Source of the DNA: an uncultured Kiritimatiellota bacterium
Lineage (GTDB): Bacteria > Verrucomicrobiota > Kiritimatiellia > RFP12 > DVOR01
Length of the DNA: 64,000 nt
Direction: 5' to 3'
Assembly (NCBI GenBank): GCA_944389945.1
Contig: CALXOF010000011.1
Coordinates: 539 to 64,538, forward strand
Positions 6,135 through 30,403 of the stretch are shown in pieces. The translations under genes and the position numbers were made by a program. The notes under the pieces are model-generated. The model was given only the letters and a program-made list of their open reading frames with translations, ran no database searches and had not been told where the DNA came from. Every line of letters starts with the position of its first letter. The first letter of the stretch is position 1.

Positions 6135-6187
6135 CGTCGCCCCGCAGGGGCGCTCCGTTCTCCGTTTTCCGTTTTCCGTTCTCCGGC
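6135..6187. repeat. Mosaic intergenic repeat, family B (CGTCGCCCCGCAGGGGCG hairpin + CCGTTCTCCGTTTTCCG heptamer tract)
   Basis: Same composite unit at about 10808-10880, 11141-11210, 12891-12940, 14575-14690, 15105-15145, 28395-28470, 32095-32160, 39655-39745, 50495-50665, 52929-53010, 57725-57795 and 61340-61430. Confidence 0.85.
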
Positions 6188-10807: not shown

Positions 10808-11209
10808 GGGGCGCTGACGCGCCCCGGAGAACGGAGAACGGAAAACGGAGAACAGAGCGCGCGACAAGCGCGCGACGGGTAAGCTACTGTATAAGTGGCA
10901 TCAGCCGCCTCGTCCTAGTCGTCCTATAGGTCCTATTGGTCCTACCGCGTCGCCAGTTGGCACGTCGCAGACGTGCCGGGGGTGCAGGGAGAACGTCTCC
11001 CTGCCGGGGCGTGGGGCAGCGCCCCACATCCTCCAATCAGCTAATCTGTGGTTCCCATTTCTGGCAGTCTTCGTGGTTCTTCGTGCACCTTCGTGTCAGC
11101 CCCGCAGGGCAAACCTTCCACACTCTCCCAACAACTGGCCCGTCGCGCGCTTGCCGCGCGTTCCGTTTTCCGTTTTCCGTTCTCCGTTCTCCGGGGCGCG
11201 TTAGCGCCC

Positions 11210-12878: not shown

Positions 12879-13391
12879 TCAATCTCGCCCGTCGCCCCGC
12901 AGGGGCGCTCCGTTCTCCGTTTTCCGTTCTCCGTTCTCCTCGCCATAGACCCACTGCAACACCATTAAGGCAAAGACCCCAATACAGATCGCTGAATCGG
13001 CGATGTTGAAGCAGGGGAAGTGGCTGGCGCCCCAGTGGAAATCGAGGAAGTCGATGACATAGCCCAGGCGGACGCGGTCGATGAGGTTGCCGATGATGCC
13101 GCCAAGGAGGAGCCCGGCGACGGGCGCGGCCCAGGCATGGTCGCCGAAAATCTTGCGCCAGAAGACGAAGCAGAGGATGACGGCCAAGACGCCAATGCCG
13201 GCGAGCCACAGTTGGGCCCCCTGAAACATCCCCCACGCGGCGCCTTGGTTGCGCACGTAGGTGAGGGCAAAGACCGAGAGGACGTCCACGCTCTCCCCGG
13301 GCTGGAAGTCGGCCACCACCCACAGTTTGGTGAGCTGGTCGAGGGCGAGGACGGCGAGGGCGACGGCAGAGGCGATGAGGTATTTCCGCAT
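12879..13391 (-). CDS. lspA: Lipoprotein signal peptidase II (LspA); C-terminal about 20 codons and stop supplied by a family-B repeat
   Basis: Four TM helices with conserved N..D and FNIADSAI motifs. The ORF reads through the CCGTTCTCCGTTTTCCG repeat, giving the tail GEENGERKTENGAPLRGDGRD. Confidence 0.85.
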   Translation of the reverse strand: MRKYLIASAVALAVLALDQLTKLWVVADFQPGESVDVLSVFALTYVRNQGAAWGMFQGAQLWLAGIGVLAVILCFVFWRKIFGDHAWAAPVAGLLLGGIIGNLIDRVRLGYVIDFLDFHWGASHFPCFNIADSAICIGVFALMVLQWVYGEENGERKTENGAPLRGDGRD

Positions 13392-14535: not shown

Positions 14536-14758
14536 AATGCCGATAGTATATCAAAAGGGGCGGCGAGGGGCGGCCGCTGGCCGCCCCAGAGAACGGAGAA
14601 CGGAGAACGGAGCGTGCAGGCGCGAAGCGCCAAACCTTCCACGGCCACGGAGCGCGCGACAAGCGCGCGACGGGTGAAGCCGTTGTACAATAAGCGCGAT
14701 GGGGAAGTTGCCCAAAAAGCCTAGCCTCCAAGTGGCTAAAATTCCCCCGATAAGGGGG

Positions 14759-14856
14759 CCTTTCTGGACCCTTAAGGGTTTCGGGTCGGACCACTATAGG
14801 GTCTCACCCTCGACCACTATAGTGGTTGACCTCGGACCACTATAGGGTCTCAGAAG
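14759..14856 (-). repeat. REP-like palindromic element copy A3
   Basis: Reverse-orientation copy of the GACCACTATAGTGGTC triplet unit. Confidence 0.85.
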
Positions 14857-14885
14857 GGCCCTTTACGGGCCCCTCTGGCCCCTCT

Positions 14886-14936
14886 CAGGAGATGCAGGAG
14901 ATGCAGGAGATGCAGGAGATGCAGGAGATGCAGGAG
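14886..14936. repeat. Simple tandem repeat, 9-bp unit CAGGAGATG x5.6
   Basis: Five perfect copies plus a partial one, located between the 3' end of the giant gene and the MraY-family gene start. Confidence 0.9.
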
Positions 14937-15072: not shown

Positions 15073-15102
15073 TAAAAAAGCGGGGCCGCCTTTCGGCGGC
15101 CT
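15073..15102 (-). terminator. Rho-independent terminator downstream of the giant gene
   Basis: On the minus strand: GGCCGCC-GAAA-GGCGGCC stem followed by CCGCTTTTTTACG. Confidence 0.7.
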
Positions 15103-15147
15103 CACTTGTCGCCCCGCAGGGGCGTTCTGTTCTCCGTTCTCTGTTCT

Positions 15148-18100
15148 CTAGGGGCGGGACACGTCAGTGGCCCGACCCTTTGCCTCGGCGTCTTTGACGG
15201 AGAGGAGGACGGCACGGAAGAAGTTGCAGTCGGTGCCGGAGAGGATGAGGACGCGCTCACCATTGAGGTCCTCGGGGTAGAGGCGCTGGATGTAGCGCCA
15301 CTCGGGGTCGTCGAGGCTGACCTTGCCGAGGAGAACGAGGGCGCCGTCGCCGCGGATGGCGGTGATGGGCTCGCCGTTGTTGGTGAAGGCGATGGAGACG
15401 GTGGGGACGGGCGCGGCGGGCTCGCCACCGGCAGCCACTGCGGCGTCTTCCTCGTAGGTGCCGATGCGGGTGAAGTTCAGGTTGACATCGGCGACCTCGA
15501 TGGCGCTATCGAAGCCGAGCCAGTACTTCTCGGAGGCGGTGACGCCGTCGTCCTGGGTCTGCTTGAGGATGGCATCGGGGTCGTTCTTGAGGACCCAGTC
15601 GAGGAAGCCATCGTCCTCGGAGTTGAGGGCACCGGTGTCATCGAGGCGCGCGGCGGCGGGGGAGTAGACGAGGGTGAGGACATAGTCGGTGTCCGCCTCG
15701 AGGAGGCCGCTGTCGATGGACATGGAGGGCGCGGCGCTGAGGGTGCCGGCGTCGGCGACGGAGAAGGTGGTGAGGCGCTTGGCCTGAGCCGCGAGGGGTT
15801 TGCCATTCTTGGTGATGGAGGAGAGGCGGAACCACTTGTCATCCCACAGCTGATTGACGGAGAGCGCGTAGGTATCGCCGAAGGAGCCGACGAAGGAGAC
15901 GGCGCGGCCGGTTTGGGCATTGGTGCCATTGTGCTGGAGGGCGAGGCTGCCGTCGCGGCCGCCGACAATCTGGGCGGAGAGGGCGAGCATACGGCCAGCG
16001 GCGGAGGTCTCCATCCGGAAGTCGGAGCGGGTCTGGGTGTACTCGGAGGTGTTGCCGACCCACCAACCGTTGGGGCCGGGGAAGGTGTTCATCTGGGTGG
16101 CATAGGGGTCAACGCCCCAGGAGGTGCCCTCGAAGGTGGCGACATCGTCGGCGGCCCCCAAGTTCGTGTGGCTAAACTCATCCACGAGCATATAGGACCC
16201 AGAGCCATTCTGAATCTCGGCCAGCGCCAAGCGGGTTGAGGTCACAGAGCGGACGGTGGCGGAAACGATGTGGGAGGCGTTCTCAATGTCGACGGCACGC
16301 TGAAGTTGTTCAGCGGCGGGGCCGACAAGCCAGTTTGCAGGATAGTCGCAGAAGAGGATTTCATCGGCGACGACCCCGTTGTCGCGAACGAGCTGGAGGG
16401 CATAGAGGGCGCCGTTGGAGTAGTTGCCGGAGAGGGCGGCGGCATCTGCGGGGACGTTGGCGAGGGGGTCTTCGGCGGGGAACCAGCTGAAGGTGTTCGC
16501 GTTGCCTTCCGTGTAGCGATGCTGGAGGAAGTGGAGATTGCCCTCCTCCTGGTCCTCGACAAAGCCATCCTCATAGGTGTTGCCGATGCGGGTGTCGCCG
16601 ATGACGTAGTAGTCCGTATCGTAGACATCGTTTTGCCCGGCGTGGGGGAGGAGACGGCGATAGGGGACCCAGCCCGTGAGCGGGATGTTGGTCTCGACAT
16701 CCGTCCACTCGATGGGGACATCGAGGGGGGCCGTCGTGGCGGGCAGGGGCGCAACCTTGAGGGCGATGCTCCAGCCATCGAGGGAGCGCTTGGGACGGAG
16801 GTAATAGCTATTGTAGTCGGTCGAGAGATTCGTGAGGGTGGCGGGGTCCACGTACGTGAGCGTCTCATCCTCGGCCCCGGTGACGACGGCGACGGGCGAG
16901 GCCTCCATGGCGAGCTCGATGCCGAAGGAGATGGTGTCTTCGCCGGCCGTGGTCTTACGGGTGGGACGGAACTCGTTGAGCCAGACGCCGGTGGGGGCGA
17001 TGTTGTAGATCCAGGCGTAGGGGGAGGGCTCGATCTTGCGCTCCTTGGCCACGGCATTGATGTTGGCCTGGTCGTCGGGGACGTACCAGGGGCAGTAGCC
17101 CTCGAAGCCATCGGAGGTGAAGTTGGCGATGCCCTGGGCGTCGTAGACGGTGCCTTCACTGTCGGCGACGACGATGGCGAAGCGGAGGACGGCGCCATTC
17201 TGCCAGAAGAGCTCATCGGTCATGTCGATGGACTGGGTGAAGGGCGCGAGGCCATCGGCGAAGCCGGACTCATCGAAGCCGCCGCCGGCGAACTCGTCGG
17301 GGGTCATGGTGCGGAAGGCGACGCGGGCATTGGCGAGGAACTCCTCGTCGGTGTAGTCGGCGGGGGCTTGGATGATGCCGCCGTCCTGCGCATCCTCGGA
17401 GACGACGAGGTCAGGGTCGCGGAAGCCGATGAACTTGAGCGGGACGATGCCGGCGGCGGCGCAGTAGTCGGTGCCGGTGGTGGCGTTATAGCTGGAAGCG
17501 AGCTTCTGGCGGATGGCGGAGAGGGTGGTGGTGAGGCCATCGCCAATGGAAGGCTTGGAGCCAATCCAGCGGGCGAGGCTCCACTGGTTGAAGAAGTCCG
17601 TGGAGGCAGTGGTGACGGAACCGCCGGTGGGGTCGGCAGCGTTGACGGTCGCGGCAGGGATGAGCGACCAGGCGAGGTAGAGGCGGGTGTTGTTGTTGGC
17701 GAAGTTCTGGCAGAGGGTCTGCGCATCGCCGAGTTTGCCGCCGATGAGGCCGCGGGAGGGGTCGATGACGACGGACATGCCGAGCGTGTCGCCGACGAGG
17801 GGCTGATAAAGCCAGCCGTGGACGTCCTTGTGCTCACCGCGGGCGTTACCCTCCGCATCGTCCCAGATGGGGAAGGTGACGGTCTCGCCGCCCTTGTCTT
17901 CGATGGGGTCGCCGGTGGCGGTGTCGATGGCGAAGAGGGTCTGGGTGGCGAGCCAAGCGCCGGCGCCGGTCTCGCCCTGGGCGAAGGAGACGGTGATGGT
18001 GTTGTTGGCGGAGGCGGGCTCGTCAACGAAGAGGAGGGTGATGACGAAGTCGTCCTGGTCGGCGAAGGTCTCGTCGCCGTCGGCGCCGTCCTCATCGAAC

Positions 18101-21100
18101 TCGCGGTCGAAGGAGATGACGCCGGTGGGGTTGCCGTTGGCGTCGCGCTCGACGGTGGCGCGGCCGTTGAGGGTGAGCCAGTCGCCGGTGGTGATGGTGG
18201 TGGGGTTATCGGCCGTATCTCGGGCCTGGATATTCTGGTTGTACGCCTGCAGGACGGTGTCCTCGGAGAGGACGCCATTGGACGAGCCGATGAGCATGAC
18301 GTGGCCGATGAGCTCGGGCGGGAGGGCGATGGAGTCGAAGCAGTAGCCGGTGCGCGGCTTGAAGGAGAAGACGTTGCCGTTGTTGAGCTCGCTATAGACC
18401 CAATCACGGCCGGAAGCGGTCTCGGTGGCGGTCTCGGTGCGGCCGGTGGTATTCTCGATGAAGTAGCCCTTGTTCCAGGAGCCGCAGAGGCCGGTGCCGT
18501 AGGTGACGTTGCGGAGGGTGATGGTGAAGGCGACCTGGTTCCATTCAGGCTCGGGGTCAGGCTTGATGGGGTTGCCGTTCTCATCGAGGTTGTCCTCGCC
18601 GAGGGTGGCGGCACGGAAGGCCCACTGGTCGCGCTCGGCGGCGAGGGAGGAGATGCCGCGATAGGCTTCATTGTCGCCGCGGCTGACGAGCCGGCCGACG
18701 AGCTGGACGGAGCCGGCCGTGCCGGTGGAGTCGGTGACGCCGTTGAAGACGTTGCCGGTGCCGCCAGGGGTGAGCCAGGGGGTCATCGTCAGGGAAGCCG
18801 GGCCGTTGACGGCGGTGCCGCCGGTCGCGTCGGCGGAGAGCCAGACGCCGCCCTCAGCCGCACCGCAAGGACGATGAAGGACGTAGGCGCGGAGGTCGTT
18901 GGAAGCCGAGAGGGTGGCAGTGTAGTAGGCGTAGGAGGTGGAACCGGACTGGGGTGCGTTTGCGGCATCGTCAGTTGGCGTGAGAGTGGCAGGGGTGGCG
19001 GCCTGTGCGCCGGTAGAATCATAAGTGAAGACCTGCCAGCCGTCGGGGGTGGTCTGGGGGACGCCGGCGGCGGTGATGCCGTCGCGCAGGACGGGCATGA
19101 CGACCTCGGCGGCGAGGTTGGTGGAGTCGCCGGCGGGGTTGGCGATGTTCACCTCGTTGAGCCAGGCGGATTCGGGCGGGGTGGAGTAGAGATAGAAGTA
19201 GGGCATGGCCGTGCCGGCGCCGGCGACGTTGAGGTCCTCGACGGGGGCGTACCAGGAGGGATAGACGAAGGGCGTGACGGAGGCGGACGCGGCCTCGCCG
19301 GGCAGGGCCTGGCGGACGAGGAAGTCGACGGAGCCGTTGCCGGAGTCGGTCTGGAAGGTGGCGCGGTAGACACCCCAGGCGACATAGGGGATGGCAGGCT
19401 CGATGCCGCCGCCATTGGTGGTGTCGTCCGGCGTGGAATAGGAGGTGCCGAGGATGCCGACGAGAGAGGCGCTGGCGAAGCGGCCGTCGTTGGGGTTGAG
19501 CTGGGCGACACGGGTGCCGTAGTCGGGCGTGAGGATGGTGGAAATCTGCTCGGTGGCATCCGCGAAGGTGCGGCCTTCGAGGGAGAGGGTGGGCGCGGGA
19601 GCCGTGGCATTGGGGTCGGTGTAGTTGGCGCCAACCCAAGCGGCGTTCAGGCCCCAGTCGGCACGGTGGCCGGGGTCGGGATAGAAGACGAGGATGGCCT
19701 CGAGGGAGAGGTTGTTCTGCTCCAGGAGGGTGGCATTATAGTCGGCCTCGAAGCCGAAGCCGCTGCCCCACCAAGGCTGGTTGCGCTGGGCGGAGACGGT
19801 GGGCGCGGAGCCGTCCGTGGTCTCCTCGGGGAGGGCGGTGCAGGGGCGGACGCCGGTGATGAGGGCACGGGCGTCGGGGTTGTCAGAGTCGAAGGCGAAG
19901 GTGGCCTCGGCCTCAAGGAGATAGCGGGTCTCCGTGTCATCGGGGTTATCCGGATCGTGGAGGATGGCCACAATATCGAAGGAGGTCGAATCGGCGGGCA
20001 GGGTGACGGAGACCCAGTTGTTGGTGACCGTGCCGAAGTCGAAGGAGCCACCAGTGGAGAAGGAGACCCGATCGGCGATGCCCGGGAGCGTGCGGCCGTC
20101 GACCGTCTGCGTGCCCTCGGCGAGGTAGGTGCCGGACTGGGAATCGAGCATGCGGACGCGGAGCCCGGTGAGGTGGTGGAAGGGCAATGCGTCGTAAGTG
20201 AGGGTGGCGGTGGGCTCGCCGGCGGCATCGACCGACCAAGAGACTTCCTCATTGCCGCCACGGCGGGTCTCGGTGGGGGTGGTCTTGTTGGGGAGGTAAA
20301 GGGTGTGGGTGCCGGCGCCGGAGATTTCGGAGATGACGCCGCACTGGGTGAGGCCGGAGTACTGGAGAATGTACTGGTCGGGGTTGACCTGGCGCGGGGT
20401 GACCTGGACGACGGGGGCGACGGCGTCAGTGTCCAACTCAATGGAATTATCGTCGGCCTCCACCGGCTCGTCGGGGCGGGTGTTCGTGACGGGGTTGAGA
20501 TCGTCGGGCCACGTGCCGGTGAGGATGTGGGTGAGGTCGCCGGGGCCATTATCGCCCACGCCGGCGACGGCGTTGCGGCGGGAGACCCACTTGCCGCCCA
20601 TGTCAACGGTGGAGACGGAGGCGGCGCGGGCGTTGGAGGCGCGCTCGTAGACCCAGGTCGGGGTGGCCGCGGCGTTGCCGGACCTATCGTAACGGCCGTT
20701 GGCATCGGCATAGAAGGAGTCGGCCACGGCCAGACGGCGGGCATGGGCAAGCGCGGAGACGCGGCGGTCGGCAAAGCCATCGTCGCCGGATTCATCTTCC
20801 CAAGAGGTGTCTAGGAAGGTCTGATACCAGGGGGAGCGGACGGCGAGCGCGTCATCCGTGTCGTCGCCCTCCGTGGCGGAGTCGACGGCAAAGCCGTTGT
20901 CGGAATAGGCACTGTAATAGGTGTCGCGGAGGTCGGCCAGGGCTTCCTTGTTGGTCGACCCAGAGGCGGAGCTCGCGGTGGCGGTGCTGAAGATGACGAT
21001 GTGCTCGGCACCGCCGGTGGGACGATAAAGCAGGGCAGAGGTGACGGCTCCATCGGTGGCAGTCTGGAAGATGCCATCACCGAGTTGAATTTGGTCACCC

Positions 21101-24100
21101 CAGCCGGCATTCCGGTGGTTCACGCCTTCGGTCAAGGGGCTGTCGTCTGCCGTACGGTAATAAGCACCATAGTTGGTGTGGATGGTGTAGAAGGTGCGGT
21201 TGGCGGAGGTGTTGCCCTGACGCTTGACGGGGACGACGCCGTTCTGCGGGGCCTCCAGATTATCCGCGTCATAGGTGTTCGGGACGGCGTAGGCAGCAGG
21301 AATCTCGGTGACATCACCGCTACTGGGGGTGGTGCTGGCGAAACGCCAAGAGGTGAGATTGACGCCGACGGGGACACAGATCTCCGCGAAGGAGGTGAGC
21401 GAGGGGGTGGCGGAGCTGTGGTCGGTGAAGTTCAGTTCATTGAGGAAGACTTCGCCGGGGACGCAGGAGTACATCCAGAAGTAGGGGGAGAAGAACTCGC
21501 TGCCGACCTCGGAGTCACCTTCGGGGAGGGCGGCGTTGTGGGCGTCGCGGATTTCCTTGTTGAGGCTGCGGGGGAAGTACCACGCGGGCTCCTTGTAGTC
21601 GGCGGCGTTGATGACGGACATGTACCACTCGGTGGACTCGGAGCCATCGGCGTTCAGCTGGGTGCCCTGGTAGACGGCCCAGACGACGTAGCGGACGAGG
21701 GAGTTCTCGGGGAGGCCGGCGATGCCCGTGCGGGAGAGGTCGCCGTAGAAGTAGGTGTTGCCGGCGGCACCGGGCTCGAGCTTGAGCTCGACGGTGTCCG
21801 AGCGCGTCCAATTGGGATCCTGGCCGACCTCGGCGGGGGTGGGCTTATTGAACCAAGCGGAGATGGGCCAGGTGTCGGTGGCCGCCGTCCAACGGTAGAT
21901 GGGGCTCTCCGGGGAGCCGTTGAAGGAGTTGCCGAAGACATCCGTGTAGGAACCGGAGGTGACCCGGAGGGTGGAGGCCTCGGTGGTCTGGTAGGTGAAG
22001 AAGACGCGGACGGTGTCGTCCTTCACGAGCTGACGGTTGCCGACGGTGGCGCAGACGCGGAGGATGGACGCGCCGGAGACGGGCTGGGAGAGCGGCGAGG
22101 TGGAGACGAACGCGTCGGGATTGTTGGGGCCGGCGACGTTAGAGAAGGCGACGTCCGTAATGCGGAGGTTGGGGGAGACGGGGTCGCAGACGGCGAGGCG
22201 GTCGATAAGGACGCGGCCATAGCCACCGTCATAGCCTTCAGGCGCGTAGGCAGAGGTGGGGGCGACCCAGAGGCGCAGGCGGCGGATGTCGCGGTAGGTG
22301 AAGGTGACACCCTCGGGGAAGGTGATCTTGGAGAGGTCGGGCTCGTAGACGGTGTAGACGGTGTTGGCGACGTCGACGGAGGTGAGGATGGAGAAGTCGC
22401 TGGCCTTCAGGTCCTTGAAATCTGCCGTGGAGGTGGTGCCGGCGATGTAGAGGCGGACGGGGTCAGCGTTCGACGCGGCGAGGCGCGCGGCAAAGGCGAC
22501 ACGGCCGACACCGGTGCCAGCCTCCAGGAGGGGCGAATCGATGTAGGTGTGGGTGAGCTGCTCGGTGACAACGTTGTTGAACTGGAAGGCGGTGGTGAGG
22601 GCGGCCTTCTCGGCGAAGGTGTCCTGGGTCAGGGTGTTGCCGTCCTCGGTGAGGAGCGTGTCGGCGGCCTGGCGGTCCTTCCAATAGAGGAGGTCGACGG
22701 GGGTGTCGGTGAGGCGGGCATTGCCGGCGGCCCAGGAGGCCAGGACGCCCTCGCGGTTGTCGGAGACGACGACATTGTCGAGGTAGACGTAGGGGTCGTA
22801 AGTGGAATCGCTGTTGGAGGAGACGACCATGACCAGACGGAGGGTGCCGCCCCTACCCCTGTCATCGCTGACAATCTCCTCGCCATCAACGCGCGGGGTG
22901 ACGGAGACGGAGGACCACTCGCCGGAGATATTGTTCAGCACGATGGGGTCGGAAGCGCTGACCCAGCCCGAGGTGGCATTGCGTTCGTCCGTCAAGAAGT
23001 TGGTGTTCTCACGGGTTCCGCTATTATACTGCAATATGAGGGTGACGGACTCGGGGGTGCCACTCTCGCGCGGGGGGATGCAGTAATCGAAGGAGACGGG
23101 GCCATAGCCGACGTTGCTCCAGGGGAAGTAGAGGGCCAGAGAGGCATCGGTGGTTCTCGTACCGTTGATAGTCGTCTCGGTGTACTTGGTGTTCCGGCGG
23201 GAGCGCTGCATCAGGAGGACCTGTTCGCCGGAGTAGCTCCACTGATTGACGTTGATTTCGGCATCGTCGCGCGGGCGCACCCAGACGCCGACGGCGGAGA
23301 AGCCGGCCCCGGTGGTGTCGCCGGAGAAGCCCTCGTTGGTGTTGGTGGGGACGCGCGTCTCGCCATTGCGGTTTTCGTCATCGCCGCACCAGGAGGTGAC
23401 GGTGATATCATCGACGAAGATGCCGGTCACATCGCTCGAGTTAGCGGCGGAGCAGGAGATGGAAAGGTCTGCGTTGGAGCGGCCAAGGGTGACGGTGGTG
23501 GTGGACATCGTGCCGAACTTAGCCTGCAACGTTTTGGTTACGACCGGCTGTCCTCGGCTGGAGAGGACGAGGCGCAACTGGCCGGACTGGGCGGAGGAAG
23601 GCCTATTGCGGGAGAGGCGAATCGTGCCGCCGCTCGTCTCGCGCTGAGCGGTCCAGCAAGCGCCCCAAGAAGGCGCATTGGGCAAGGAGGGCTGTTCGAA
23701 GGTGGTCTCGGCACCAACGCCATGGCCGCTGAAGGTGTTCACCGGCGCATTCCCAGACCGCAGGTAGCGGAAGGAGGGGGCGCATTCCGCCGAGCCGACG
23801 GCGAGGTAGAAGCCATCCTGCGGGACGGTGACGCGGTAGCTCTCGTGTGAACGGGCGATGGTGGTGGAGTAATCGTCGGTGTTGTTGGCATTCGAAGTGC
23901 GAGCGGCACGGAGACGACTATTCTCATCAAGCCAGAAGGCGAAGGCGCTTCCGGCGAGGGTGGTGATGTCCGGCACCACGACGGAATAGACGGTTCCAGC
24001 GTTGCTCGAGGCCAAGGGGATGGGGGTCACACTCCCGCTAGCCCAACTGTACATCTCGGCAATGATGCATTCGCGCGGCTCGCTGTCCGTGGCCGTGGTG

Positions 24101-27100
24101 AAGTTCAGGATTTGGGAGAGGCGGAGCTCGTAGGTGACGGACGCAGACGCATTTTCGAGGTAGTAAGAGATGGAGATACCGGAGGGCGCGCAGGAGGTGG
24201 TGAAGTTCGTGGTGTCGATGCCTGCGGAGAGGCCATAGCCGGTGAGCGCACCATCGTTGCCGATCAGCCTGGCACGATAGTTCATCTCATACGGCATGGA
24301 GAGAGTGTAAGAGAGCGAGACGGTACCGATGCCCTTCAGGTTCGCATCTTCGTTAGGCGTCAAGCTATCGTTGGGGCCGAGTCGCACCATGGCGTTGGGC
24401 ATCCAGGTGCCGTCGCCCAGGCGGGAGGTGTTGCGGCGCAAGACCAATTCGGTGCCCGAACTCAGTTCGAAATACTGCGACCATGGGGAGATGCCGGACA
24501 TCTCACTCGGCGTCTGGGACAGGAGGCCGGGGTTGGCGGAACCGGAGGCGGCGCCCCACTGGCGGAAGTTATACGTGCTGGCACGTTCGTTGTTGGGATA
24601 GTAGAAGGGATAGGCGCTAGACGCCAACTGCGTCGTGGTGCGGGCGACACCGAAGGAATCGGTGAAGGAGGAGGTCTCGGAGAGGGGGCCCTCATCGGGA
24701 ATCCAGCCTTCGACAATGGTGCGCTCGCCGGTGACGCTACTCGTGCCGAACTCACGGATATCGAAGTCGGCCGTATGGGTGGAGACGTCCTCGCGGAAGT
24801 CGGTGTTGGTGAAGCCGTCGTTCTCGTCGGAACCGATGGCATCCCAGGTGTTGAAGTCCTGGCAGTAGGAGCCGACAAGGGAGATGTCGGGCCCTTGTGC
24901 GTTGGTGGAGAAGTCGATGGCGACGGAGATGTGGGAGTTGGGGATGGAGAGGGGGACGACCACGGGCGTGGTAGTTTCCTCATCGCCAACGGCGACCAAG
25001 GTGGAGGAGGTGGCGGGGACGGCGGCGAGCGTGGCGGGCATGGTGGAGGCATTGCCGGAGGCGGCGGAGCCGAACCAAGAAAGCGAGCCATCGGGAGCGG
25101 TGGCAAAGACGCGGAAGGCAAGGTAGCCCTCGGTGCCGGTCTCGCTGCGGCCGGTCGCGCCATCGGGGAGCGTGAAGTAGGCGTCAGGGGCCCAGACGTA
25201 GACGGCAGAGTCATCGCGGGAGCCGTCGCTATGGGTGGCCTCGCGGAGGACGCGGGGGATGTCGGCGCGCCACAGTTTCGGGTTGAGGGCGTCGGGAAGC
25301 ATGGGCACGTCGAGCGTGAGGAAGGTGTAGCTGGTGCTCTCGTCGCCGCTACGGTAGAAGACGCGGAGGGTGACGCCCTCATTGGAGGTCTCCTGCTCAC
25401 GGAGGTCGGCGACCATGGGGTGATAAATAAACTCGGGGAGCTGCTCCTCCGCGGGGGCGGTGGCGTCGTAGTCAGGGTTCGGCGTGGTATAGACGGAGAT
25501 TTCGCCGAGAACGGACTCGCGCTGGTCGATGACCTCACGTCCGGCGAGGAAGGAGCCGAGGATGCCGTAATTCAGCTTGACGTCATAGACGCCGGGGAGG
25601 GCGCCGGTGACCCGGTTGGCGCTATTGAGGGCGAAGGCGTTCTCGGTGACGTTGACGGAACCGTTGGGATTGGTGGTCAGGGTGACGGGGGAGAAGGTGG
25701 CGGTGAGGTCGCTCACGTTGGCGGCGTTGGAGTTGGAGACCGTAACGTTTGCGGCGGAATACCATTGGGCGGTCGTGTCGTCATTGGCGCGGCGGCGGAG
25801 CTGGATGTCGGCCGTGTAGCCGCGGGGGAGATTGTCGGCGGCGCCGGTGGCCTTCAGGGTGAGGGTCCAGCGGCCATTGGCGGCGGCAAAGAGGGGGTCG
25901 GGGTTGACGATGGGGGCCGCATCGAAAGAGGCGGAGGGCGCGGCGGAACGCACAATCAGGTCGCGGATGGTGATGGCATACAGATACTGCTCGCCGCCCG
26001 AGTAGGTGCCGTCGCGCACGATGCGGAAACGGCAACCGGCGGTGCCGAGGTCTTCGGGGATGGCGACGGTATAGGTTTCGAGATTGATGGTGGGCATGAT
26101 GATGCCGGCGGGGTTTTCGTCCCCTTCGCCCACGAGCGTCCAGGCGGAGCCGTTCCAGACCTCGACGCGGAGGTACTGCTCCTCCATTGCGGAGGCGAGG
26201 GCGGCCTGGAAGGAGACGGAGGCAATGCCATCGGGATAGGTGGGGGAGACCAGGCTGGGCTTGAGGGTGCCGGAGCCTTCCGTGCTGAGGAGCTGAACGC
26301 CGCCCACGCCGTCAAAGGTGTCGCCGATGACGCCGCCATGGATTTCCCAAGTGGTGTCGCCGGGCATGACGCCCAGGGTCCAGTGATAGACGGAGCCCCA
26401 GCGGTCAAGGGTGTCGGTCAGGAGGCCGTCGGCCCAGTCGACCGTGGCACCCGAGCCGTCATCGTAGGCGCCTTCGTGGGAGACCCAGACGCGGGGGTCG
26501 GTGAAGGTCTGCTTGCGGCCGGCATCCTGGATGTCGGAGACACGAGTGAAGGAGCCGATACCGTAGGTGCCCGCGACGTACCATTCGTAGGTGCTCTCGC
26601 CGTTCAGCAACGAGGCGATGAAGGGATCGTCGGTGCCATAAGTCTCGCGGCTGAGGTAGGTGCACTCCCAGCGGGCGGGGTTGACCGAGGAGGTCTGTTC
26701 GGCAGAGGCGACGTAGTCCGGGGTAGCGTCGCCGGAGGTGACGACGTCGTAGTTCGTGGCGCCGGTCTGCGGCATGGGATAGAAGCCGCTGGCGGGGGTG
26801 GTGTCGCCCGCGGCATAGGGTGCATCGCGCACCAGGAGGATGGAGCCATCGAAGGCGGTCTCGGGGCCCTTGTGGGGGCGGAACATCAGGCGCGAGGGCC
26901 TGGCGTAGGTCGGCATGCCGTAGGTCGTGCCCGTGCGCGGGATGGAGAGGGTGACCTTGACGCGGACGCGATCACTGTCGCCGGTGGCGGGCTGGCCATC
27001 GGCGGTGGTCACGTTTTCATTGGTCGTGGCGTCGAGCAGAGAGACGGCGTAGAGCACCCTGTCGGACTGGACGATGCCGGTGTCCTGTTGCGCCCAAGCG

Positions 27101-27165
27101 GCGGGCCCTCCGAAGAGTCCCACCGCCACCGTCATCAGCGCCCAAAATTGGAAGCGTTTCATCAT
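15148..27165 (-). CDS. Giant secreted protein (4005 aa), T/S/D/N/G/W/Y-rich, no recognisable catalytic motif
   Basis: Uninterrupted 12-kb ORF, far too long to arise by chance. N-terminal signal peptide MMKRFQFWALMTVAVGLFGGPAAWAQQD. Composition is typical of a beta-rich extracellular adhesin-like protein. Its start is 3 bp downstream of the pseudopilin-like gene stop. Confidence 0.8.
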   Translation of the reverse strand: MMKRFQFWALMTVAVGLFGGPAAWAQQDTGIVQSDRVLYAVSLLDATTNENVTTADGQPATGDSDRVRVKVTLSIPRTGTTYGMPTYARPSRLMFRPHKGPETAFDGSILLVRDAPYAAGDTTPASGFYPMPQTGATNYDVVTSGDATPDYVASAEQTSSVNPARWECTYLSRETYGTDDPFIASLLNGESTYEWYVAGTYGIGSFTRVSDIQDAGRKQTFTDPRVWVSHEGAYDDGSGATVDWADGLLTDTLDRWGSVYHWTLGVMPGDTTWEIHGGVIGDTFDGVGGVQLLSTEGSGTLKPSLVSPTYPDGIASVSFQAALASAMEEQYLRVEVWNGSAWTLVGEGDENPAGIIMPTINLETYTVAIPEDLGTAGCRFRIVRDGTYSGGEQYLYAITIRDLIVRSAAPSASFDAAPIVNPDPLFAAANGRWTLTLKATGAADNLPRGYTADIQLRRRANDDTTAQWYSAANVTVSNSNAANVSDLTATFSPVTLTTNPNGSVNVTENAFALNSANRVTGALPGVYDVKLNYGILGSFLAGREVIDQRESVLGEISVYTTPNPDYDATAPAEEQLPEFIYHPMVADLREQETSNEGVTLRVFYRSGDESTSYTFLTLDVPMLPDALNPKLWRADIPRVLREATHSDGSRDDSAVYVWAPDAYFTLPDGATGRSETGTEGYLAFRVFATAPDGSLSWFGSAASGNASTMPATLAAVPATSSTLVAVGDEETTTPVVVPLSIPNSHISVAIDFSTNAQGPDISLVGSYCQDFNTWDAIGSDENDGFTNTDFREDVSTHTADFDIREFGTSSVTGERTIVEGWIPDEGPLSETSSFTDSFGVARTTTQLASSAYPFYYPNNERASTYNFRQWGAASGSANPGLLSQTPSEMSGISPWSQYFELSSGTELVLRRNTSRLGDGTWMPNAMVRLGPNDSLTPNEDANLKGIGTVSLSYTLSMPYEMNYRARLIGNDGALTGYGLSAGIDTTNFTTSCAPSGISISYYLENASASVTYELRLSQILNFTTATDSEPRECIIAEMYSWASGSVTPIPLASSNAGTVYSVVVPDITTLAGSAFAFWLDENSRLRAARTSNANNTDDYSTTIARSHESYRVTVPQDGFYLAVGSAECAPSFRYLRSGNAPVNTFSGHGVGAETTFEQPSLPNAPSWGACWTAQRETSGGTIRLSRNRPSSAQSGQLRLVLSSRGQPVVTKTLQAKFGTMSTTTVTLGRSNADLSISCSAANSSDVTGIFVDDITVTSWCGDDENRNGETRVPTNTNEGFSGDTTGAGFSAVGVWVRPRDDAEINVNQWSYSGEQVLLMQRSRRNTKYTETTINGTRTTDASLALYFPWSNVGYGPVSFDYCIPPRESGTPESVTLILQYNSGTRENTNFLTDERNATSGWVSASDPIVLNNISGEWSSVSVTPRVDGEEIVSDDRGRGGTLRLVMVVSSNSDSTYDPYVYLDNVVVSDNREGVLASWAAGNARLTDTPVDLLYWKDRQAADTLLTEDGNTLTQDTFAEKAALTTAFQFNNVVTEQLTHTYIDSPLLEAGTGVGRVAFAARLAASNADPVRLYIAGTTSTADFKDLKASDFSILTSVDVANTVYTVYEPDLSKITFPEGVTFTYRDIRRLRLWVAPTSAYAPEGYDGGYGRVLIDRLAVCDPVSPNLRITDVAFSNVAGPNNPDAFVSTSPLSQPVSGASILRVCATVGNRQLVKDDTVRVFFTYQTTEASTLRVTSGSYTDVFGNSFNGSPESPIYRWTAATDTWPISAWFNKPTPAEVGQDPNWTRSDTVELKLEPGAAGNTYFYGDLSRTGIAGLPENSLVRYVVWAVYQGTQLNADGSESTEWYMSVINAADYKEPAWYFPRSLNKEIRDAHNAALPEGDSEVGSEFFSPYFWMYSCVPGEVFLNELNFTDHSSATPSLTSFAEICVPVGVNLTSWRFASTTPSSGDVTEIPAAYAVPNTYDADNLEAPQNGVVPVKRQGNTSANRTFYTIHTNYGAYYRTADDSPLTEGVNHRNAGWGDQIQLGDGIFQTATDGAVTSALLYRPTGGAEHIVIFSTATASSASGSTNKEALADLRDTYYSAYSDNGFAVDSATEGDDTDDALAVRSPWYQTFLDTSWEDESGDDGFADRRVSALAHARRLAVADSFYADANGRYDRSGNAAATPTWVYERASNARAASVSTVDMGGKWVSRRNAVAGVGDNGPGDLTHILTGTWPDDLNPVTNTRPDEPVEADDNSIELDTDAVAPVVQVTPRQVNPDQYILQYSGLTQCGVISEISGAGTHTLYLPNKTTPTETRRGGNEEVSWSVDAAGEPTATLTYDALPFHHLTGLRVRMLDSQSGTYLAEGTQTVDGRTLPGIADRVSFSTGGSFDFGTVTNNWVSVTLPADSTSFDIVAILHDPDNPDDTETRYLLEAEATFAFDSDNPDARALITGVRPCTALPEETTDGSAPTVSAQRNQPWWGSGFGFEADYNATLLEQNNLSLEAILVFYPDPGHRADWGLNAAWVGANYTDPNATAPAPTLSLEGRTFADATEQISTILTPDYGTRVAQLNPNDGRFASASLVGILGTSYSTPDDTTNGGGIEPAIPYVAWGVYRATFQTDSGNGSVDFLVRQALPGEAASASVTPFVYPSWYAPVEDLNVAGAGTAMPYFYLYSTPPESAWLNEVNIANPAGDSTNLAAEVVMPVLRDGITAAGVPQTTPDGWQVFTYDSTGAQAATPATLTPTDDAANAPQSGSTSYAYYTATLSASNDLRAYVLHRPCGAAEGGVWLSADATGGTAVNGPASLTMTPWLTPGGTGNVFNGVTDSTGTAGSVQLVGRLVSRGDNEAYRGISSLAAERDQWAFRAATLGEDNLDENGNPIKPDPEPEWNQVAFTITLRNVTYGTGLCGSWNKGYFIENTTGRTETATETASGRDWVYSELNNGNVFSFKPRTGYCFDSIALPPELIGHVMLIGSSNGVLSEDTVLQAYNQNIQARDTADNPTTITTGDWLTLNGRATVERDANGNPTGVISFDREFDEDGADGDETFADQDDFVITLLFVDEPASANNTITVSFAQGETGAGAWLATQTLFAIDTATGDPIEDKGGETVTFPIWDDAEGNARGEHKDVHGWLYQPLVGDTLGMSVVIDPSRGLIGGKLGDAQTLCQNFANNNTRLYLAWSLIPAATVNAADPTGGSVTTASTDFFNQWSLARWIGSKPSIGDGLTTTLSAIRQKLASSYNATTGTDYCAAAGIVPLKFIGFRDPDLVVSEDAQDGGIIQAPADYTDEEFLANARVAFRTMTPDEFAGGGFDESGFADGLAPFTQSIDMTDELFWQNGAVLRFAIVVADSEGTVYDAQGIANFTSDGFEGYCPWYVPDDQANINAVAKERKIEPSPYAWIYNIAPTGVWLNEFRPTRKTTAGEDTISFGIELAMEASPVAVVTGAEDETLTYVDPATLTNLSTDYNSYYLRPKRSLDGWSIALKVAPLPATTAPLDVPIEWTDVETNIPLTGWVPYRRLLPHAGQNDVYDTDYYVIGDTRIGNTYEDGFVEDQEEGNLHFLQHRYTEGNANTFSWFPAEDPLANVPADAAALSGNYSNGALYALQLVRDNGVVADEILFCDYPANWLVGPAAEQLQRAVDIENASHIVSATVRSVTSTRLALAEIQNGSGSYMLVDEFSHTNLGAADDVATFEGTSWGVDPYATQMNTFPGPNGWWVGNTSEYTQTRSDFRMETSAAGRMLALSAQIVGGRDGSLALQHNGTNAQTGRAVSFVGSFGDTYALSVNQLWDDKWFRLSSITKNGKPLAAQAKRLTTFSVADAGTLSAAPSMSIDSGLLEADTDYVLTLVYSPAAARLDDTGALNSEDDGFLDWVLKNDPDAILKQTQDDGVTASEKYWLGFDSAIEVADVNLNFTRIGTYEEDAAVAAGGEPAAPVPTVSIAFTNNGEPITAIRGDGALVLLGKVSLDDPEWRYIQRLYPEDLNGERVLILSGTDCNFFRAVLLSVKDAEAKGRATDVSRP

Positions 27166-27168
27166 GCG

Positions 27169-28311
27169 TTATTTCCCATCTGGCGAGCCATTTCGGTTCA
27201 ACCCACCGGAGCCATAATACTTAGAGACCTTCTTGCGTGCGCTCGTGTCTGGGCTGTCGGGGTCTGAAGAGGGATCACGGATGGTCTCCACGCGACCATC
27301 GCCGAAGCAGACGTAGGCAATCCAAACGCCGCCGTCATCATGGTTGAAGCCGATGCACTCATCGTGCTCGTCCCAGTCCCACACCTGGTCGCCGGCCAAA
27401 CCATTCTGGTTGGAAATCTGTTCGTCGTCGAGGTCGAGCTCCACGAAGAGAACGGTGTTGGAGGGGGAGGCCTCCTGTCGCTCATTGTTGCCCTGACCGG
27501 TGCGGGGGCGGAGGGAGGTGGCGCCCAAGCGGATGGCCTTGTGCTGGGTCTTGCCGCCGCAGCAGAAGATTTGCTCGTAACCGGCGTCTTGGTAATAGTC
27601 GTCTTCGTAGAGGTCTCGGTCAGCGCCGGCGATGACATTCATGGCATAGGCGCGGACGACCTCGTCCTCGGTGGCGACACGGCCCAACTCCACGGCGCGC
27701 GTGTTGAAGGCGGGATTGGTGTAGGCCTCGAGGTTCTTGTTGAGGTATTCATAGAGGGCGCCGTTCATGATGGCGACCTGGCCGTTGGAGAACTTGCCCT
27801 CGTCCTTCTTGTCGGCCCAGGCGGCGGGGACGGCGTTGAGGCCGCCCTCTTCGCTGCGGGAGTCAAAGCAAATGCAGACGCCGGCCTCGTTGACCTCGTC
27901 GCCCTGGAGGTTGCCGTTCGCGTCGACCATGCCGATGCCGGCGAGGTCGCCCCCCTGCTTATGGTTGCCGTCGCCCACCTTGTCGCCGTTGGGGTCCTCG
28001 GAGCGGGGGCAATCATGCTCAAAATAGACCCACCCGCGGGAGCGGCCGAAACGCTCTTCGCGGCGAGAGCCATCGTAACTGGAAAATTCCGTGAAGACGC
28101 CGCCGGCGGCCGGCCACGCGCCGTGCTCGCTCTTATACGCCAAGGCCGCCTGCCCCAGATTACGCAAATTGTTCGTGGCCACCGCGGCATCACCGAAACC
28201 GAGCGCACCCCCGATCACCGGCACCAAAACGGCGGCCAGAATGCCCACAATCACGATGACCACAAGCAGTTCGATCAACGTGAAGCCTAGCTTACGCGCA
28301 ACATTTGTCAT
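27169..28311 (-). CDS. Prepilin-type N-terminal cleavage/methylation domain protein (T2SS pseudopilin-like, HX9DG/DUF1559-type)
   Basis: MTNVARKLGFTLIELLVVIVIVGILAAVLVPV is the class III signal and methylation motif. C-terminal AYVCFGDGRVETI matches the HX9DG-type motif abundant in PVC genomes. Confidence 0.85.
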   Translation of the reverse strand: MTNVARKLGFTLIELLVVIVIVGILAAVLVPVIGGALGFGDAAVATNNLRNLGQAALAYKSEHGAWPAAGGVFTEFSSYDGSRREERFGRSRGWVYFEHDCPRSEDPNGDKVGDGNHKQGGDLAGIGMVDANGNLQGDEVNEAGVCICFDSRSEEGGLNAVPAAWADKKDEGKFSNGQVAIMNGALYEYLNKNLEAYTNPAFNTRAVELGRVATEDEVVRAYAMNVIAGADRDLYEDDYYQDAGYEQIFCCGGKTQHKAIRLGATSLRPRTGQGNNERQEASPSNTVLFVELDLDDEQISNQNGLAGDQVWDWDEHDECIGFNHDDGGVWIAYVCFGDGRVETIRDPSSDPDSPDTSARKKVSKYYGSGGLNRNGSPDGK

Positions 28312-28590
28312 CTGCGAAACCTCGTACGTTGAGAATAGTATAGAGGAAACGGCGGCAAGATGGAAGGATTTTTTTGCGGCAAGCGCGCCTTTGGCCGCTT
28401 TACCGCAAAAAAAGAGAGAACGGAGAACGGAAAACAGAGAACAGAAGGGGTGGTTGCGCCACCCCGGAGAACAGAAAAAGGAAGGCAGAGGCCTGCGCGC
28501 GCGGCAACCGCGCGGCGACCCTCTTTATATAATAAGGTAGCATTGCGCCTCCCGCGCCTTCGAAAACACCCCCTCAAAAGGCTCTTCGCG

Positions 28591-28680
28591 GACCCTTAAG
28601 GGTTTCGACCCCGACCACTATAGGGTCTCACCTCCGACCACTATAGTGGTTGACCTCGGACCACTATAGGGTCTCAGAAA
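28591..28680 (-). repeat. REP-like palindromic element copy A4
   Basis: Same unit as at 14759. Confidence 0.85.
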
Positions 28681-28694
28681 GGCCCTTTTGGGGC

Positions 28695-30290
28695 TTAGAC
28701 GCGGGGGTCTAGGGGTGGTGCCGCTAGCGTTTCGACCACGGCGTCGTCAAGCGAATGGTTCTCGGACTTGAAGTTGAGGCCGATGAGGTGGATGGGCTTG
28801 TCCAGGGCGCGATAGGGCTCGGCATAGCCGTTGGCCTTGATTTGGGCGAGAGCCTCGGCGGCGGACTTGTCGACCTTGAGCTCGAAGACGTAGACGTTAC
28901 GTTGGCTCTCGACCACCAAATCGGCACGACCTTGGGCCTGCGTGTCCTCGGCAATCACGCGAAGTGCAGGGTGCGAGGCCAGCAGGGCATAGAGCGGGCG
29001 CAGGTAACCGGATTCATGCACACGCGCCTCGGTGGAGCCGTAAGTCAGGTGCGCGTAGAGCGCCTTGAGCTTGGCGAAGAAGCACGGAAAGTCGCCTTTG
29101 CCAAGGAGCGTACAGAGGGAACCGTGGTAGTCGACCGCGAAGTCCTTGGTGGCATATTGAGCCAAAAGCGAGGCGAGGCCACGGCGGACTTCCTCGTTGG
29201 GGACGCCGAGGGTGAAGCCCCATTCGGAGTAATCCTTGATGGTGAGGTAACCGCTTTGATAAAGGATGGAGACCGGCAAGATGGCCTCCAGACGGCAGAT
29301 GTCGAGGGCCTCCTCGGAGATGTTCTCCACGTTGTCGTAATCCATCTCCGTCAGTTCGTGATCAGACAGATAGTTGATTAGCACGGAAGGGGTTCCGGTC
29401 TTTGACCACGTGGGCGCAAAGATCTTCCGTTTCGCACCGAGTGTCTTGGCAATGGCGACGGGATTGTAGACGCGCGTCTCGCAATCCGGAGAGAAACGGT
29501 AGCCATTGTACCACCGGCGGAGCTCCGCGCGGTAGTCCTCGTAAGGAAGCCCCATGATATCGGCGTGCGCGTGCAGGGAGGGGCTGAAGTTGGCTTCCAA
29601 TTCCTCTTCCGTGTAACCCAGGAGCGTGGCATAGCGCGACTCCATCGTCAGGTCGTTGAGGTTGTTGAGCGCAGAGAAGACGGAGAGCTGAGTGAAGCGC
29701 GTGACCCCCGTCATCATCATGAAGCGGATGTCGGAGGCATTGTTCTTAATCTCACCGTAAAAAGCGGAAAGCGTCGCACGGATGGCCGTGGCCTTCGCGG
29801 GATCACTGAGCGCGGCGCCGACCGGCGCATCGTACTCGTCGACAAGGACAACTACGGGCTTACCGCGATGCCGGGCAAGCGCCTTAATGGCACGCGAGAA
29901 ATTGTCGTTTGGCGCGAGTGCCGGGTTATAGTCAACGTTGGCCGCATCAAACACTTCTTGCACACGCGCCACAAAGCCGGCCTTGAACCCTTCAAGCGTC
30001 TCCACATCCATCGTGGCGAAGTTGAAATGCAGGATGGGATACTCTGCCCAATCGTAGTCCATCTTGTCGATGGCGAGCCCCTTGAAGAGCTCGCGCTTGC
30101 CTTGGAAGATGTACTTCAGCGTCGAGAGCATGAGGGACTTGCCAAAACGCCGCGGACGGGAGATGAAGAAGAAAGAATCGCTCCCTCGCGTCAGCAAGGG
30201 ATACAACACCGCCGTCTTGTCGACATAGATATAGCCATCCTCCCGCAATTTACGGAAGTCAAAGACACTCTGTGCAATCTTCTGTTCCAT
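28695..30290 (-). CDS. AAA-ATPase-like domain protein with C-terminal PD-(D/E)XK nuclease-like domain (PF09820/PF08011-type), paralog 1
   Basis: Start MEQKIAQSVFDFRKLREDGYIYVDKT; P-loop ISRPRRFGKSLMLSTLKYIF; C-terminal GRADLVVESQRNVYVFELKVDKS is a PD-(D/E)XK-like core. About 80% aa identity to the ORF at 40206-41777. Confidence 0.85.
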   Translation of the reverse strand: MEQKIAQSVFDFRKLREDGYIYVDKTAVLYPLLTRGSDSFFFISRPRRFGKSLMLSTLKYIFQGKRELFKGLAIDKMDYDWAEYPILHFNFATMDVETLEGFKAGFVARVQEVFDAANVDYNPALAPNDNFSRAIKALARHRGKPVVVLVDEYDAPVGAALSDPAKATAIRATLSAFYGEIKNNASDIRFMMMTGVTRFTQLSVFSALNNLNDLTMESRYATLLGYTEEELEANFSPSLHAHADIMGLPYEDYRAELRRWYNGYRFSPDCETRVYNPVAIAKTLGAKRKIFAPTWSKTGTPSVLINYLSDHELTEMDYDNVENISEEALDICRLEAILPVSILYQSGYLTIKDYSEWGFTLGVPNEEVRRGLASLLAQYATKDFAVDYHGSLCTLLGKGDFPCFFAKLKALYAHLTYGSTEARVHESGYLRPLYALLASHPALRVIAEDTQAQGRADLVVESQRNVYVFELKVDKSAAEALAQIKANGYAEPYRALDKPIHLIGLNFKSENHSLDDAVVETLAAPPLDPRV

Positions 30291-30320
30291 GGCTCTGCTC
30301 CTTGCCCACAGTATAGCAAA
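30291..30320 (-). promoter_or_regulatory. -10-like box TTTTGCTATACT upstream of paralog 1 start
   Basis: Reverse complement reads cttttgctatactgtgggcaaggagcagagccATG. The same TTTTGCTATACTG box lies about 20 nt upstream of the paralog 2 ATG at 40206. Confidence 0.35.
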
Positions 30321-30370
30321 AGGGCAGAAGCTTATGCCGCCCAGAGAACGGAGGCCAAGGCGTTCGGCAA

Positions 30371-30403
30371 ACAAAAAAAGGCCCCCACGCGAAGGTGGAG
30401 GCC
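30371..30403 (-). terminator. Rho-independent terminator after folE (possibly bidirectional)
   Basis: AAAAAAA-GGCCCCCAC-GCGAA-GGTGGAGGCC-TTGTTTGG; on the minus strand the stem is followed by a T7 run. Confidence 0.65.

Follow-up and report, generated by a model that had tools for sequence, protein, structure and literature searches.

Does a bacterial gene for a secreted protein of some 4,000 residues work together with the pilin-like gene that stands immediately before it? Bacteria of the Planctomycetes-Verrucomicrobia-Chlamydiae (PVC) group carry dozens to hundreds of pseudopilin-like genes of unknown role, and the locus studied here pairs one such gene with a single 12-kb open reading frame (ORF). 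It lies in a stretch of 64,000 nucleotides, here called the window, from an uncultured, gut-type Kiritimatiellota bacterium (GenBank assembly GCA_944389945.1, contig CALXOF010000011.1, positions 539 to 64,538 of the forward strand). ORFs and their translations place a prepilin-like gene of 380 amino acids (the pilin; 27169..28311, minus strand) directly ahead of a gene for a giant secreted protein of 4005 amino acids (the giant; 15148..27165, minus strand). The reading that we favor, tentatively and a shade short of calling it probable, is that of a Kiritimatiellia-specific operon encoding a giant adhesin-like exoprotein and a pilin-like partner dedicated to it, the two products acting as a pair.

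Whether the search set out from the giant or from the pilin, the pairing was conserved in every one of the 12 other lineages checked. Homologues of the giant led to ten of them (loci L007, L008/9, and L010 to L017), and each of these encodes an N_methyl protein of 334 to 384 residues directly upstream of the giant on the same strand. In the reverse direction, we picked two pilin homologues located on long contigs, and behind each stands a giant gene, encoding 4056 residues in one case and 3968 in the other. No lone copy of either gene was seen in either direction, and no locus contains a second prepilin gene within 5 to 10 kb on either side. The two genes are separated by 1 to 7 bp in 9 of the 12 lineages and by 36 to 86 bp in the three most distant. 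Flanking genes vary among the lineages, and the G+C content of the locus ranges from 0.44 to 0.69. The original prediction had made its case depend on conservation of this pairing, and the pairing is kept.

A very long ORF without database annotation, with repeat elements on both sides, could in principle be an assembly artefact, a pseudogene, or a phage-derived fiber gene, and its interruption in related genomes had been named as grounds for abandoning the prediction. The ORF is uninterrupted in a public-collection cluster of 49 members at 90% identity or more, and it has been assembled independently many times. Full-length members listed in this cluster span 3992 to 4011 residues, so the variants differ by in-frame indels. 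An exhaustive HMMER search with residues 1739 to 2934 against 1.84 billion cluster representatives matched only 23 proteins, nearly all of 3100 to 4084 residues and collinear with the query. The window giant and 18 full-length relatives (19 in total) align end to end at 25 to 72% identity. A word-prefilter search with the N-terminal 1000 residues returned nothing although the giant is in the collection, a limit of the prefilter and not a sign of absence.

The G+C content at third codon positions (GC3) is 0.80 in the pilin and 0.87 in the giant, in a genome of about 65% G+C, and both ORFs are therefore true coding frames. The frame is intact in the 49 variants, in independent assemblies, and in relatives down to 25% identity; its ratio of nonsynonymous to synonymous substitution rates (dN/dS) is below 1; and the repeat on its flanks is dispersed over eight or more sites. 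An artefact or pseudogene is effectively refuted, as is a phage-derived gene, and together they retain next to no probability. Phage origin was also considered as a candidate by itself and rejected, given the housekeeping neighbors, the lack of a match in PHROGs, and the lack of a convincing viral fold match.

Neither gene belongs to a named family. The giant gave no usable match in Pfam, NCBIfam, or PHROGs, whether searched whole, in tiles (520 residues for Pfam and NCBIfam), or through its distant members, and its family profile matched nothing among PDB sequences. Its only match in a reference genome is a Kiritimatiellota metagenome-assembled genome (L007), and the sources label the pilin homologues Kiritimatiellia or Kiritimatiellae, in agreement with the PVC setting first proposed. 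The giant and its partner pilin are two families currently without a name in any database.

The arrangement of the two genes is that of a compact transcription unit. The trinucleotide CGC (27166..27168, minus strand) is all that separates TAA, the stop codon of the pilin, from the giant ATG, confirming the 3-bp gap first noted, and so tight a junction may allow translational coupling. The genes had been described as translationally fused in an operon; the operon stands and the fusion does not, since these are two separate ORFs with gaps of 1 to 86 bp and mixed frames across lineages. Stop-codon read-through was considered as a candidate, the two being in frame in the window, and rejected: gap length varies, and whether stop and start share a frame differs from lineage to lineage, which leaves a read-through fusion unconserved. 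An intrinsic-terminator-like hairpin, GGCCGCC-GAAA-GGCGGCC plus a T-run (15074..15101, minus strand), lies 47 nt past the giant stop codon; all seven of its pairs are G-C and it ranked first among the sites. The unit is therefore a two-gene operon that ends there.

Upstream, sequence inspection assigns the putative operon promoter and 5' untranslated region to the non-coding positions 28312..28568 (minus strand), which contain a candidate -10 box, TATACTAT, at 28335-28342, 5' of the pilin start codon, as well as a GAGG Shine-Dalgarno-like element. The octamer is repeated at approximately 14548-14555, just 5' of the start codon of the GT4 gene, and we infer, from sequence alone, that TATACTAT is a candidate -10 box for the source organism. 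A strict sigma-70 scan found no promoter site in the region upstream of the pilin gene. The genes beyond the operon are unrelated to it and of housekeeping type: a GT4/MraY-like transferase, MiaA, and RadC downstream, and an AAA-ATPase_like/PDDEXK_9 protein, FolE, an M24 peptidase, and iPGM upstream. The 64-kb window holds no further prepilin motif and no secretion-machinery gene, and an Rfam scan of its whole length found no RNA family.

As originally proposed, the upstream gene encodes a prepilin-like protein. Its N terminus, MTNVARKLG/FTLIELLVV (the slash marks the predicted cleavage site), carries Gly-1, Phe+1, and Glu+5. The class III (prepilin) signal and hydrophobic alpha-1 helix, KLG/FTLIELLVVIVIVGILAAV, occupy residues 6-29 (28225..28296, minus strand), where the match to PF07963 (N_methyl) reaches 29.3 bits (cut-off 21.2); TIGR02532 is likewise above its cut-off (28.9 bits against 16.3). 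By these N-terminal features, including a hydrophobic helix of about 20 residues, the protein belongs to the superfamily of type IV pilins and type II secretion system (T2SS) pseudopilins. The nearest curated model is that of GspG, the major T2SS pseudopilin (TIGR01710), at 42 bits (E = 8.9e-11) against a cut-off of 88.85 and over residues 9-69 only. With 380 residues against a model of about 134, and a match confined to the N-terminal helix, the pilin is not a GspG.

The gene had also been called HX9DG-type, a label that is inexact. TIGR04294 (H-X9-DG) gives no match to the window pilin at E ≤ 1, DUF1559 (PF07596, SBP_bac_10) stays below threshold at residues 46-94 (16.5 bits against 23.3; E = 0.0089), and the C-terminal motif, NHDDGGVWIAYVCFGDG, has the spacing H-X13-DG. 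None of the full-length orthologues has a precomputed PF07596 match; 6 of 11 orthologues touch TIGR04294 weakly, at best with E = 0.0046, and some homologues of about 50% identity carry the JGI label H-X9-DG protein. The pilin probably stands outside the PVC DUF1559/HX9DG pseudopilin-like group, as a divergent relative.

The pilin family has a sharp edge: about 67 clusters score at least 243 bits, and the next match falls to 67 bits and covers the N terminus only. Full-length orthologues occur in 10 other loci, with a mean column identity of 52%. Special to the family are the invariant blocks GDQVWDWD, FNH..G...VCFxDG, and SKWYGSGG, together with three invariant Cys. The first two (residues 307-314 and 322-339; 27289..27393, minus strand) form (near-)invariant columns of the C-terminal alignment, and FNH..G...VCFxDG is the H-X13-DG variant motif. 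A profile built from 11 orthologues aligns to the solved pilins geopilin, PilA, and GspG over the first 60 or so residues only, and in this comparison the globular part of about 310 residues found no solved relative.

The giant bears a signal peptide, as first suggested. Its N terminus, MMKRFQFWALMTVAVGLFGGPAAWA/QQ, is of the Sec type (residues 1-25, cleavage at AWA/QQ; 27091..27165, minus strand) and has no lipobox Cys. Calling signal peptides by sequence pattern, we found n, h, and c regions with A-x-A sites in all 19 family members, and hence in 18 of 18 full-length relatives. There is no transmembrane segment past the signal peptide. The protein is rich in Ala (10.6%), Thr (10.2%), Gly (8.6%), Ser (8.3%), and Asp (7.5%), with 2.2% Trp and 1.2% Lys, and has a net charge of -253. 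Near-invariant residues number 278, mostly W, G, P, F, and Y; because they include only one His and one Lys, no catalytic motif is apparent.

The N-terminal third (residues 27-1226; 23488..27087, minus strand) was modeled with AlphaFold2 from a 15-sequence family alignment as nearly all strands, with a mean predicted local distance difference test (pLDDT) score of 73. With Foldseek, it resembles a chain of jelly-roll beta-sandwiches like those of MAM domains and carbohydrate-binding modules (CBMs). The PDB matches, significant yet modest, include the MAM-Ig module of RPTPmu (E = 1.4e-5), meprin MAM, neprosin, and CBM6/16/22/27. Template modeling (TM) scores of single domains are 0.45-0.55, with CBM6/16/22 aligned over 130-150 columns, and none of the matches has a counterpart among sequence-model matches. 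The C-terminal third (residues 2806-4005; 15151..18750, minus strand; AlphaFold2 pLDDT 70.8) is a mixed alpha/beta multidomain region. Foldseek found nothing significant for it in the PDB, the best matches (E = 0.02) being generic Ig, FimA, and Gram-positive pilin sandwiches, and nothing convincing in the viral library BFVD. The earlier description of the giant as beta-rich therefore holds for its N-terminal third and not for its C-terminal third.

The giant had also been described as free of recognizable catalytic or repeat motifs. This stands insofar as Pfam and NCBIfam give no match and BLAST self-comparison detects no internal repeats, and it does not stand at the level of profiles, where three paralogous modules emerge. 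Module A spans approximately residues 1824-2065 (20971..21696, minus strand; core SPYFWMYS..PGEVFLNELN...FAEICVP...LTSW), module B residues 2592-2774 (18844..19392, minus strand), and module C residues 3344-3611 (16333..17136, minus strand). Comparison of family sub-alignments with hhalign relates the three at 96-98% probability, and module A to B and C at 97.8-98.1%; for A and B, the Smith-Waterman score is 162, against 61 ± 10 for shuffles. Their common core reads SPY.W.YS..P..W.NE.N ... E ... GW. In the AlphaFold2 model of the C-terminal third, module C is a beta-sandwich that starts at VWLNEF. The pattern W-L-N-E ... E-[IV] ... G-W resembles that of the lamin-tail domain (LTD), a weak likeness. 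LTD is absent from the top Foldseek matches of the C-terminal tile, and the pooled module profile matched nothing among PDB sequences. The last 200 or so residues of the giant are among its best conserved. A shared generic C-terminal sorting or docking domain was considered there and rejected, the last 246 residues matching only fragments of the giant family.

The pair evolves unevenly. Between the window and L007, protein identity is 95.5% for the flanking GT4 (dN/dS 0.08), 92.4% for the pilin (0.14), and 72.5% for the giant (0.59), with synonymous divergence (dS) alike in all three (0.26-0.34). Near-identical variants of the giant differ along its whole length, with a hotspot at residues 2301-2700 and the greatest constancy in the last 200 residues. 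Rapid protein change combined with a strictly kept 12-kb frame is typical of exposed surface proteins.

Taken with the sequence features, these results lead us, tentatively, to favor a pilus- or pseudopilus-dependent surface adhesin or glycan binder as the nature of the giant. Sec would carry the 4005-residue protein across the inner membrane, and the exported chain would fold into an elongated, very acidic series of beta-sandwiches, with MAM/CBM-like jelly rolls toward the N terminus and LTD-like modules in the C-terminal half. A prepilin peptidase would cleave the 380-residue pilin, which, through its Glu5-bearing alpha-1 helix, could join a (pseudo)pilus of the T2SS or type IV pilus (T4P) type assembled by machinery encoded elsewhere in the genome. 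The giant would then dock on its cognate partner, the pilin globular domain of about 310 residues, and filament growth would take the giant through the secretin and hold it at the filament tip or cell surface, where its lectin-like domains may bind glycans or particles. That the two proteins touch, how the giant is exported, that it stays at the surface instead of being released, and what it binds are all inferred. The dependence of secretion or display on a T2SS/T4P-like pseudopilus, as put forward in the original prediction, is still a hypothesis; synteny, the pilin N terminus, and a report of Sec, Tat, and T2SS in the Kiritimatiellota type strain (PMC5148204) point to it, and the Omnitrophota giant genes described below offer a precedent.

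Several points weigh against this scheme. The machinery is assumed, because neither the 64-kb window nor the fetched loci contain a T2SS/T4P assembly gene (secretin, ATPase, platform, or prepilin peptidase). A folded protein of 430 kDa is an unusual cargo for a secretin, and known tip adhesins such as PilY1 are accompanied by several minor pilins, not one. The CBM and MAM matches are at fold level only, with E values from 1e-5 to 1e-2, and LTD (PF00932), the sole Pfam family to recur among 30 pooled modules, appears in 3 of them below threshold (best E = 0.022). Dozens of pseudopilin-like paralogues of unknown role occur per PVC genome, with 68 DUF1559 paralogues in Planctopirus (PMC10632474), and incorporation of the pilin into a pilus is therefore not a given. 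A more specific form of the scheme, in which the pilin head binds a single Sec-exported lectin-like protein of 430 kDa one to one and the complex is pushed out by a shared T2SS/T4P machine, leaving the giant at the filament tip, is a doubtful proposition, if one worth stating.

The same synteny serves equally well the possibility that the giant is a released T2SS exoprotein, for example a glycan-scavenging or matrix protein, with the pilin acting only as a substrate-specific pseudopilin adaptor and nothing being retained on the cell. The giant indeed has no recognizable anchor, be it a lipobox, a transmembrane segment, or a known C-terminal sorting signal; GspG is the closest curated model to the pilin, and a T2SS is reported in the phylum. 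However, that GspG match is restricted to the N-terminal helix and falls well below its cut-off, T2SS substrates normally lack a private pseudopilin, and strict one-to-one pairing with tight coupling favors a stoichiometric complex over a catalytic adaptor. We regard release as unlikely. Slightly less likely still is an envelope scaffold that involves no pilus, in which the pilin would be a helix-anchored periplasmic receptor in the inner membrane, tethering the giant in the periplasm for a structural or polysaccharide-handling role. The conserved Glu+5 and the GspG/PilA-like alpha-1 helix suggest filament assembly instead, and the dN/dS and strain-level indels of the giant are more typical of exposed proteins. 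What speaks for a scaffold is that no machinery genes lie near and the giant has no outer-membrane targeting signal, that the large PVC pseudopilin-like expansions, those of Planctopirus included (PMC10632474), have no demonstrated pilus role, and that many PVC DUF1559-type paralogues may likewise stay anchored in the inner membrane.

It is also conceivable, if improbable, that the two genes are cotranscribed and functionally independent, their adjacency reflecting shared regulation or inheritance as a stable pair. The pairing is known here from gene order, the sampled lineages seemingly belong to one class, and synteny can partly be inherited. Against this, the pair persists despite reshuffled flanks, giants as little as 25% identical, and the wide range in locus G+C content, and both families are narrow and co-distributed, without a lone copy of either.

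Beyond the pair itself, the gene neighborhoods of some lineages share further features. In the three most distant loci (L011 to L013), the giant is followed by a conserved block, with a Lip_A_acyltrans (LpxL-like) gene and then an HNH gene, which in L012 is preceded by a small GDT1 gene. TP_methylase and DUF481 genes are also downstream of the giant in L011 and L013 and near the pair in L010. The neighbors in L010 to L013 amount, as far as gene annotations tell, to a partial synteny with envelope-biogenesis genes. Further very large genes occur less than 10 kb from the pair in two other lineages (L018, 1-3586; L019, 1-3236), one encoding 4662 residues with Laminin_G_3 and one at least 1703 residues with faint Laminin_G_3 and F5_F8_type_C signals. 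By virtue of these genes, such genomes appear to encode several giant lectin-like proteins. In the window, paralogous AAA-ATPase_like plus PDDEXK_9 genes lie 10 kb apart at 28695-30374 (minus strand) and 40041-41777 (plus strand), and a homologue is found near the L008 pair.

The repeats described downstream of the giant are both real. One is a 9-bp tandem repeat of the 9-mer CATCTCCTG (14886-14936; 5.7 copies, 100% matches), and the other is an element resembling repetitive extragenic palindromes (REP-like; 14745-14870), made of 23-nt sub-repeats around the imperfect palindrome GACCCTATAGTGGTC. REP-like arrays start in the window at 1571, 1855, 14775, 28591, 35591, 49088, 53054, and 58328. 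A 126-nt version flanks the operon on both sides (14745-14870 and 28569-28694) and recurs at 35561 and 49068. Because these families occupy at least eight intergenic sites of the window, the downstream repeats are not specific to the operon; the 9-bp and REP-like repeats are a genome-wide feature irrelevant to it. We considered the flanking 126-nt copies as ends of a mobile element and rejected this, given the number of intergenic sites and flanks that differ between lineages. In L007, the 9-mer is present at 3.7 copies, and the spacer after the giant (22082-23484) consists of 1.4 kb of such elements.

Nearly every intergenic spacer of the window holds G+C-rich hairpins flanked by short tandem repeats, with units such as the heptamer GTTCTCC/GAGAACG, octamers (e.g., TGGAAGCT), and the 9-mer above; examples lie at 6134-6184, 10820-10892, 12889-12939, 14582-14619, 15106-15156, 28409-28497, 39666-39754, 52947-53019, and 57715-57773. 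At 1572-2138, a 283-bp unit is duplicated in tandem with 100% identity. The duplication, with a REP-like array inside it, either touches or runs into the 3' end of uvrB (2052-4127, minus strand) and could be real or an assembly artefact. A gene for a 1411-residue tetratricopeptide repeat protein (35687-39922, minus strand) is followed at once by a 126-nt REP-like copy. Perfect 39-bp direct repeats (42051-42089 and 49007-49045) enclose the segment 42051-49045, whose G+C content is about 0.51, against about 0.65 elsewhere. Its genes code for a DUF805 protein, a coiled-coil protein, a PrsW protease, a protein of 735 residues that has 13 Sel1 repeats, and two unknowns. The segment, in which we saw no integrase, is probably a horizontally acquired island.

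Kiritimatiellota, important and little studied, break down complex and often sulfated glycans in guts and sediments. With its lectin-like architecture, extreme acidity, and rapid evolution, the giant is a candidate for their main surface adhesin or antigen. The analysis defines the giant family and its partner pilin family, both nameless in databases, and a pilin strictly paired with one giant offers a tractable test case for asking whether pilins can be cargo-specific docks or carriers. Should the pilin prove to be a private carrier, the pair would represent a new mode of giant-protein display, a Kiritimatiellia-specific means of capturing particles or glycans in gut and sediment, and a possible clue to the role of the many orphan pseudopilin paralogues of PVC bacteria.

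The pair is so far neither described nor named, and the literature searched contains no paper that ties Kiritimatiellota to pseudopilins; several known systems resemble it in part. PilY1/PilC tip adhesins act with the minor pilins FimU-PilVWX, which have their T2SS counterpart in the GspK-I-J tip. Like them, the giant is a large, Sec-exported non-pilin protein encoded beside a pilin-like gene, of a kind thought to be presented by a filament for adhesion. Unlike them, it is three to four times larger, has one 380-residue pilin partner rather than four minor pilins, and has no adjacent machinery genes. It also shows no beta-propeller match in Pfam, whole or in tiles, and its C-terminal model has no propeller-like PDB match, placing it outside that family. 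The Verru_Chthon cassette of Verrucomicrobia (TIGR02596-TIGR02600), with a large protein A and pilin-like proteins B, C, and D, similarly unites, in a PVC lineage, prepilin-type proteins and a large protein whose function is unknown. It differs in having three pilin genes, compared with one per locus here, and the giant matches no NCBIfam model, that of cassette protein A included. The pilin scores only 21.2 bits against D (cut-off 70) and 13.4 against C (cut-off 256.5), through its N-terminal helix alone, and is not a member.

The giant genes of Omnitrophota adjoin T2SS-like loci and genes with class III signals, and their products have structure-predicted domains linked to attachment and to the binding of carbohydrates (bioRxiv 10.1101/2023.11.21.568195). 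The giant gene described here likewise stands next to a gene for a class III signal peptide. The Omnitrophota proteins reach 85,804 residues, from genes of more than 25 kb that lie behind a secretion locus with over 10 genes, and have many transmembrane regions and SecA-DEAD domains (bioRxiv 10.1101/2023.11.21.568195). By contrast, our 12-kb gene encodes 4005 residues that begin with a cleavable Sec signal and contain neither a transmembrane segment beyond it nor a Pfam domain; it stands beside a single pilin gene, its flanks lack gspD/E/F, and it falls outside that group. Giant adhesins of type I secretion systems (T1SS), of the SiiE and LapA type (PMC6272769 for SiiE), share with it great size, acidity, and an abundance of beta-sandwiches. 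They have tandem bacterial Ig-like (BIg) repeats, a C-terminal T1SS signal, and adjacent genes for ABC transporter, membrane fusion, and outer membrane proteins, whereas the giant has an N-terminal Sec signal, no BLAST-detectable repeats, and no T1SS genes nearby. Closest to the pilin are the DUF1559/H-X9-DG paralogues (PF07596, TIGR04294) of Planctomycetes and other PVC bacteria, with which it shares a prepilin N terminus and a related C-terminal H...DG block. It is set apart from them by its H-X13-DG spacing, its GDQVWDWD and SKWYGSGG blocks, an orthologous family of its own, and a fixed giant partner.

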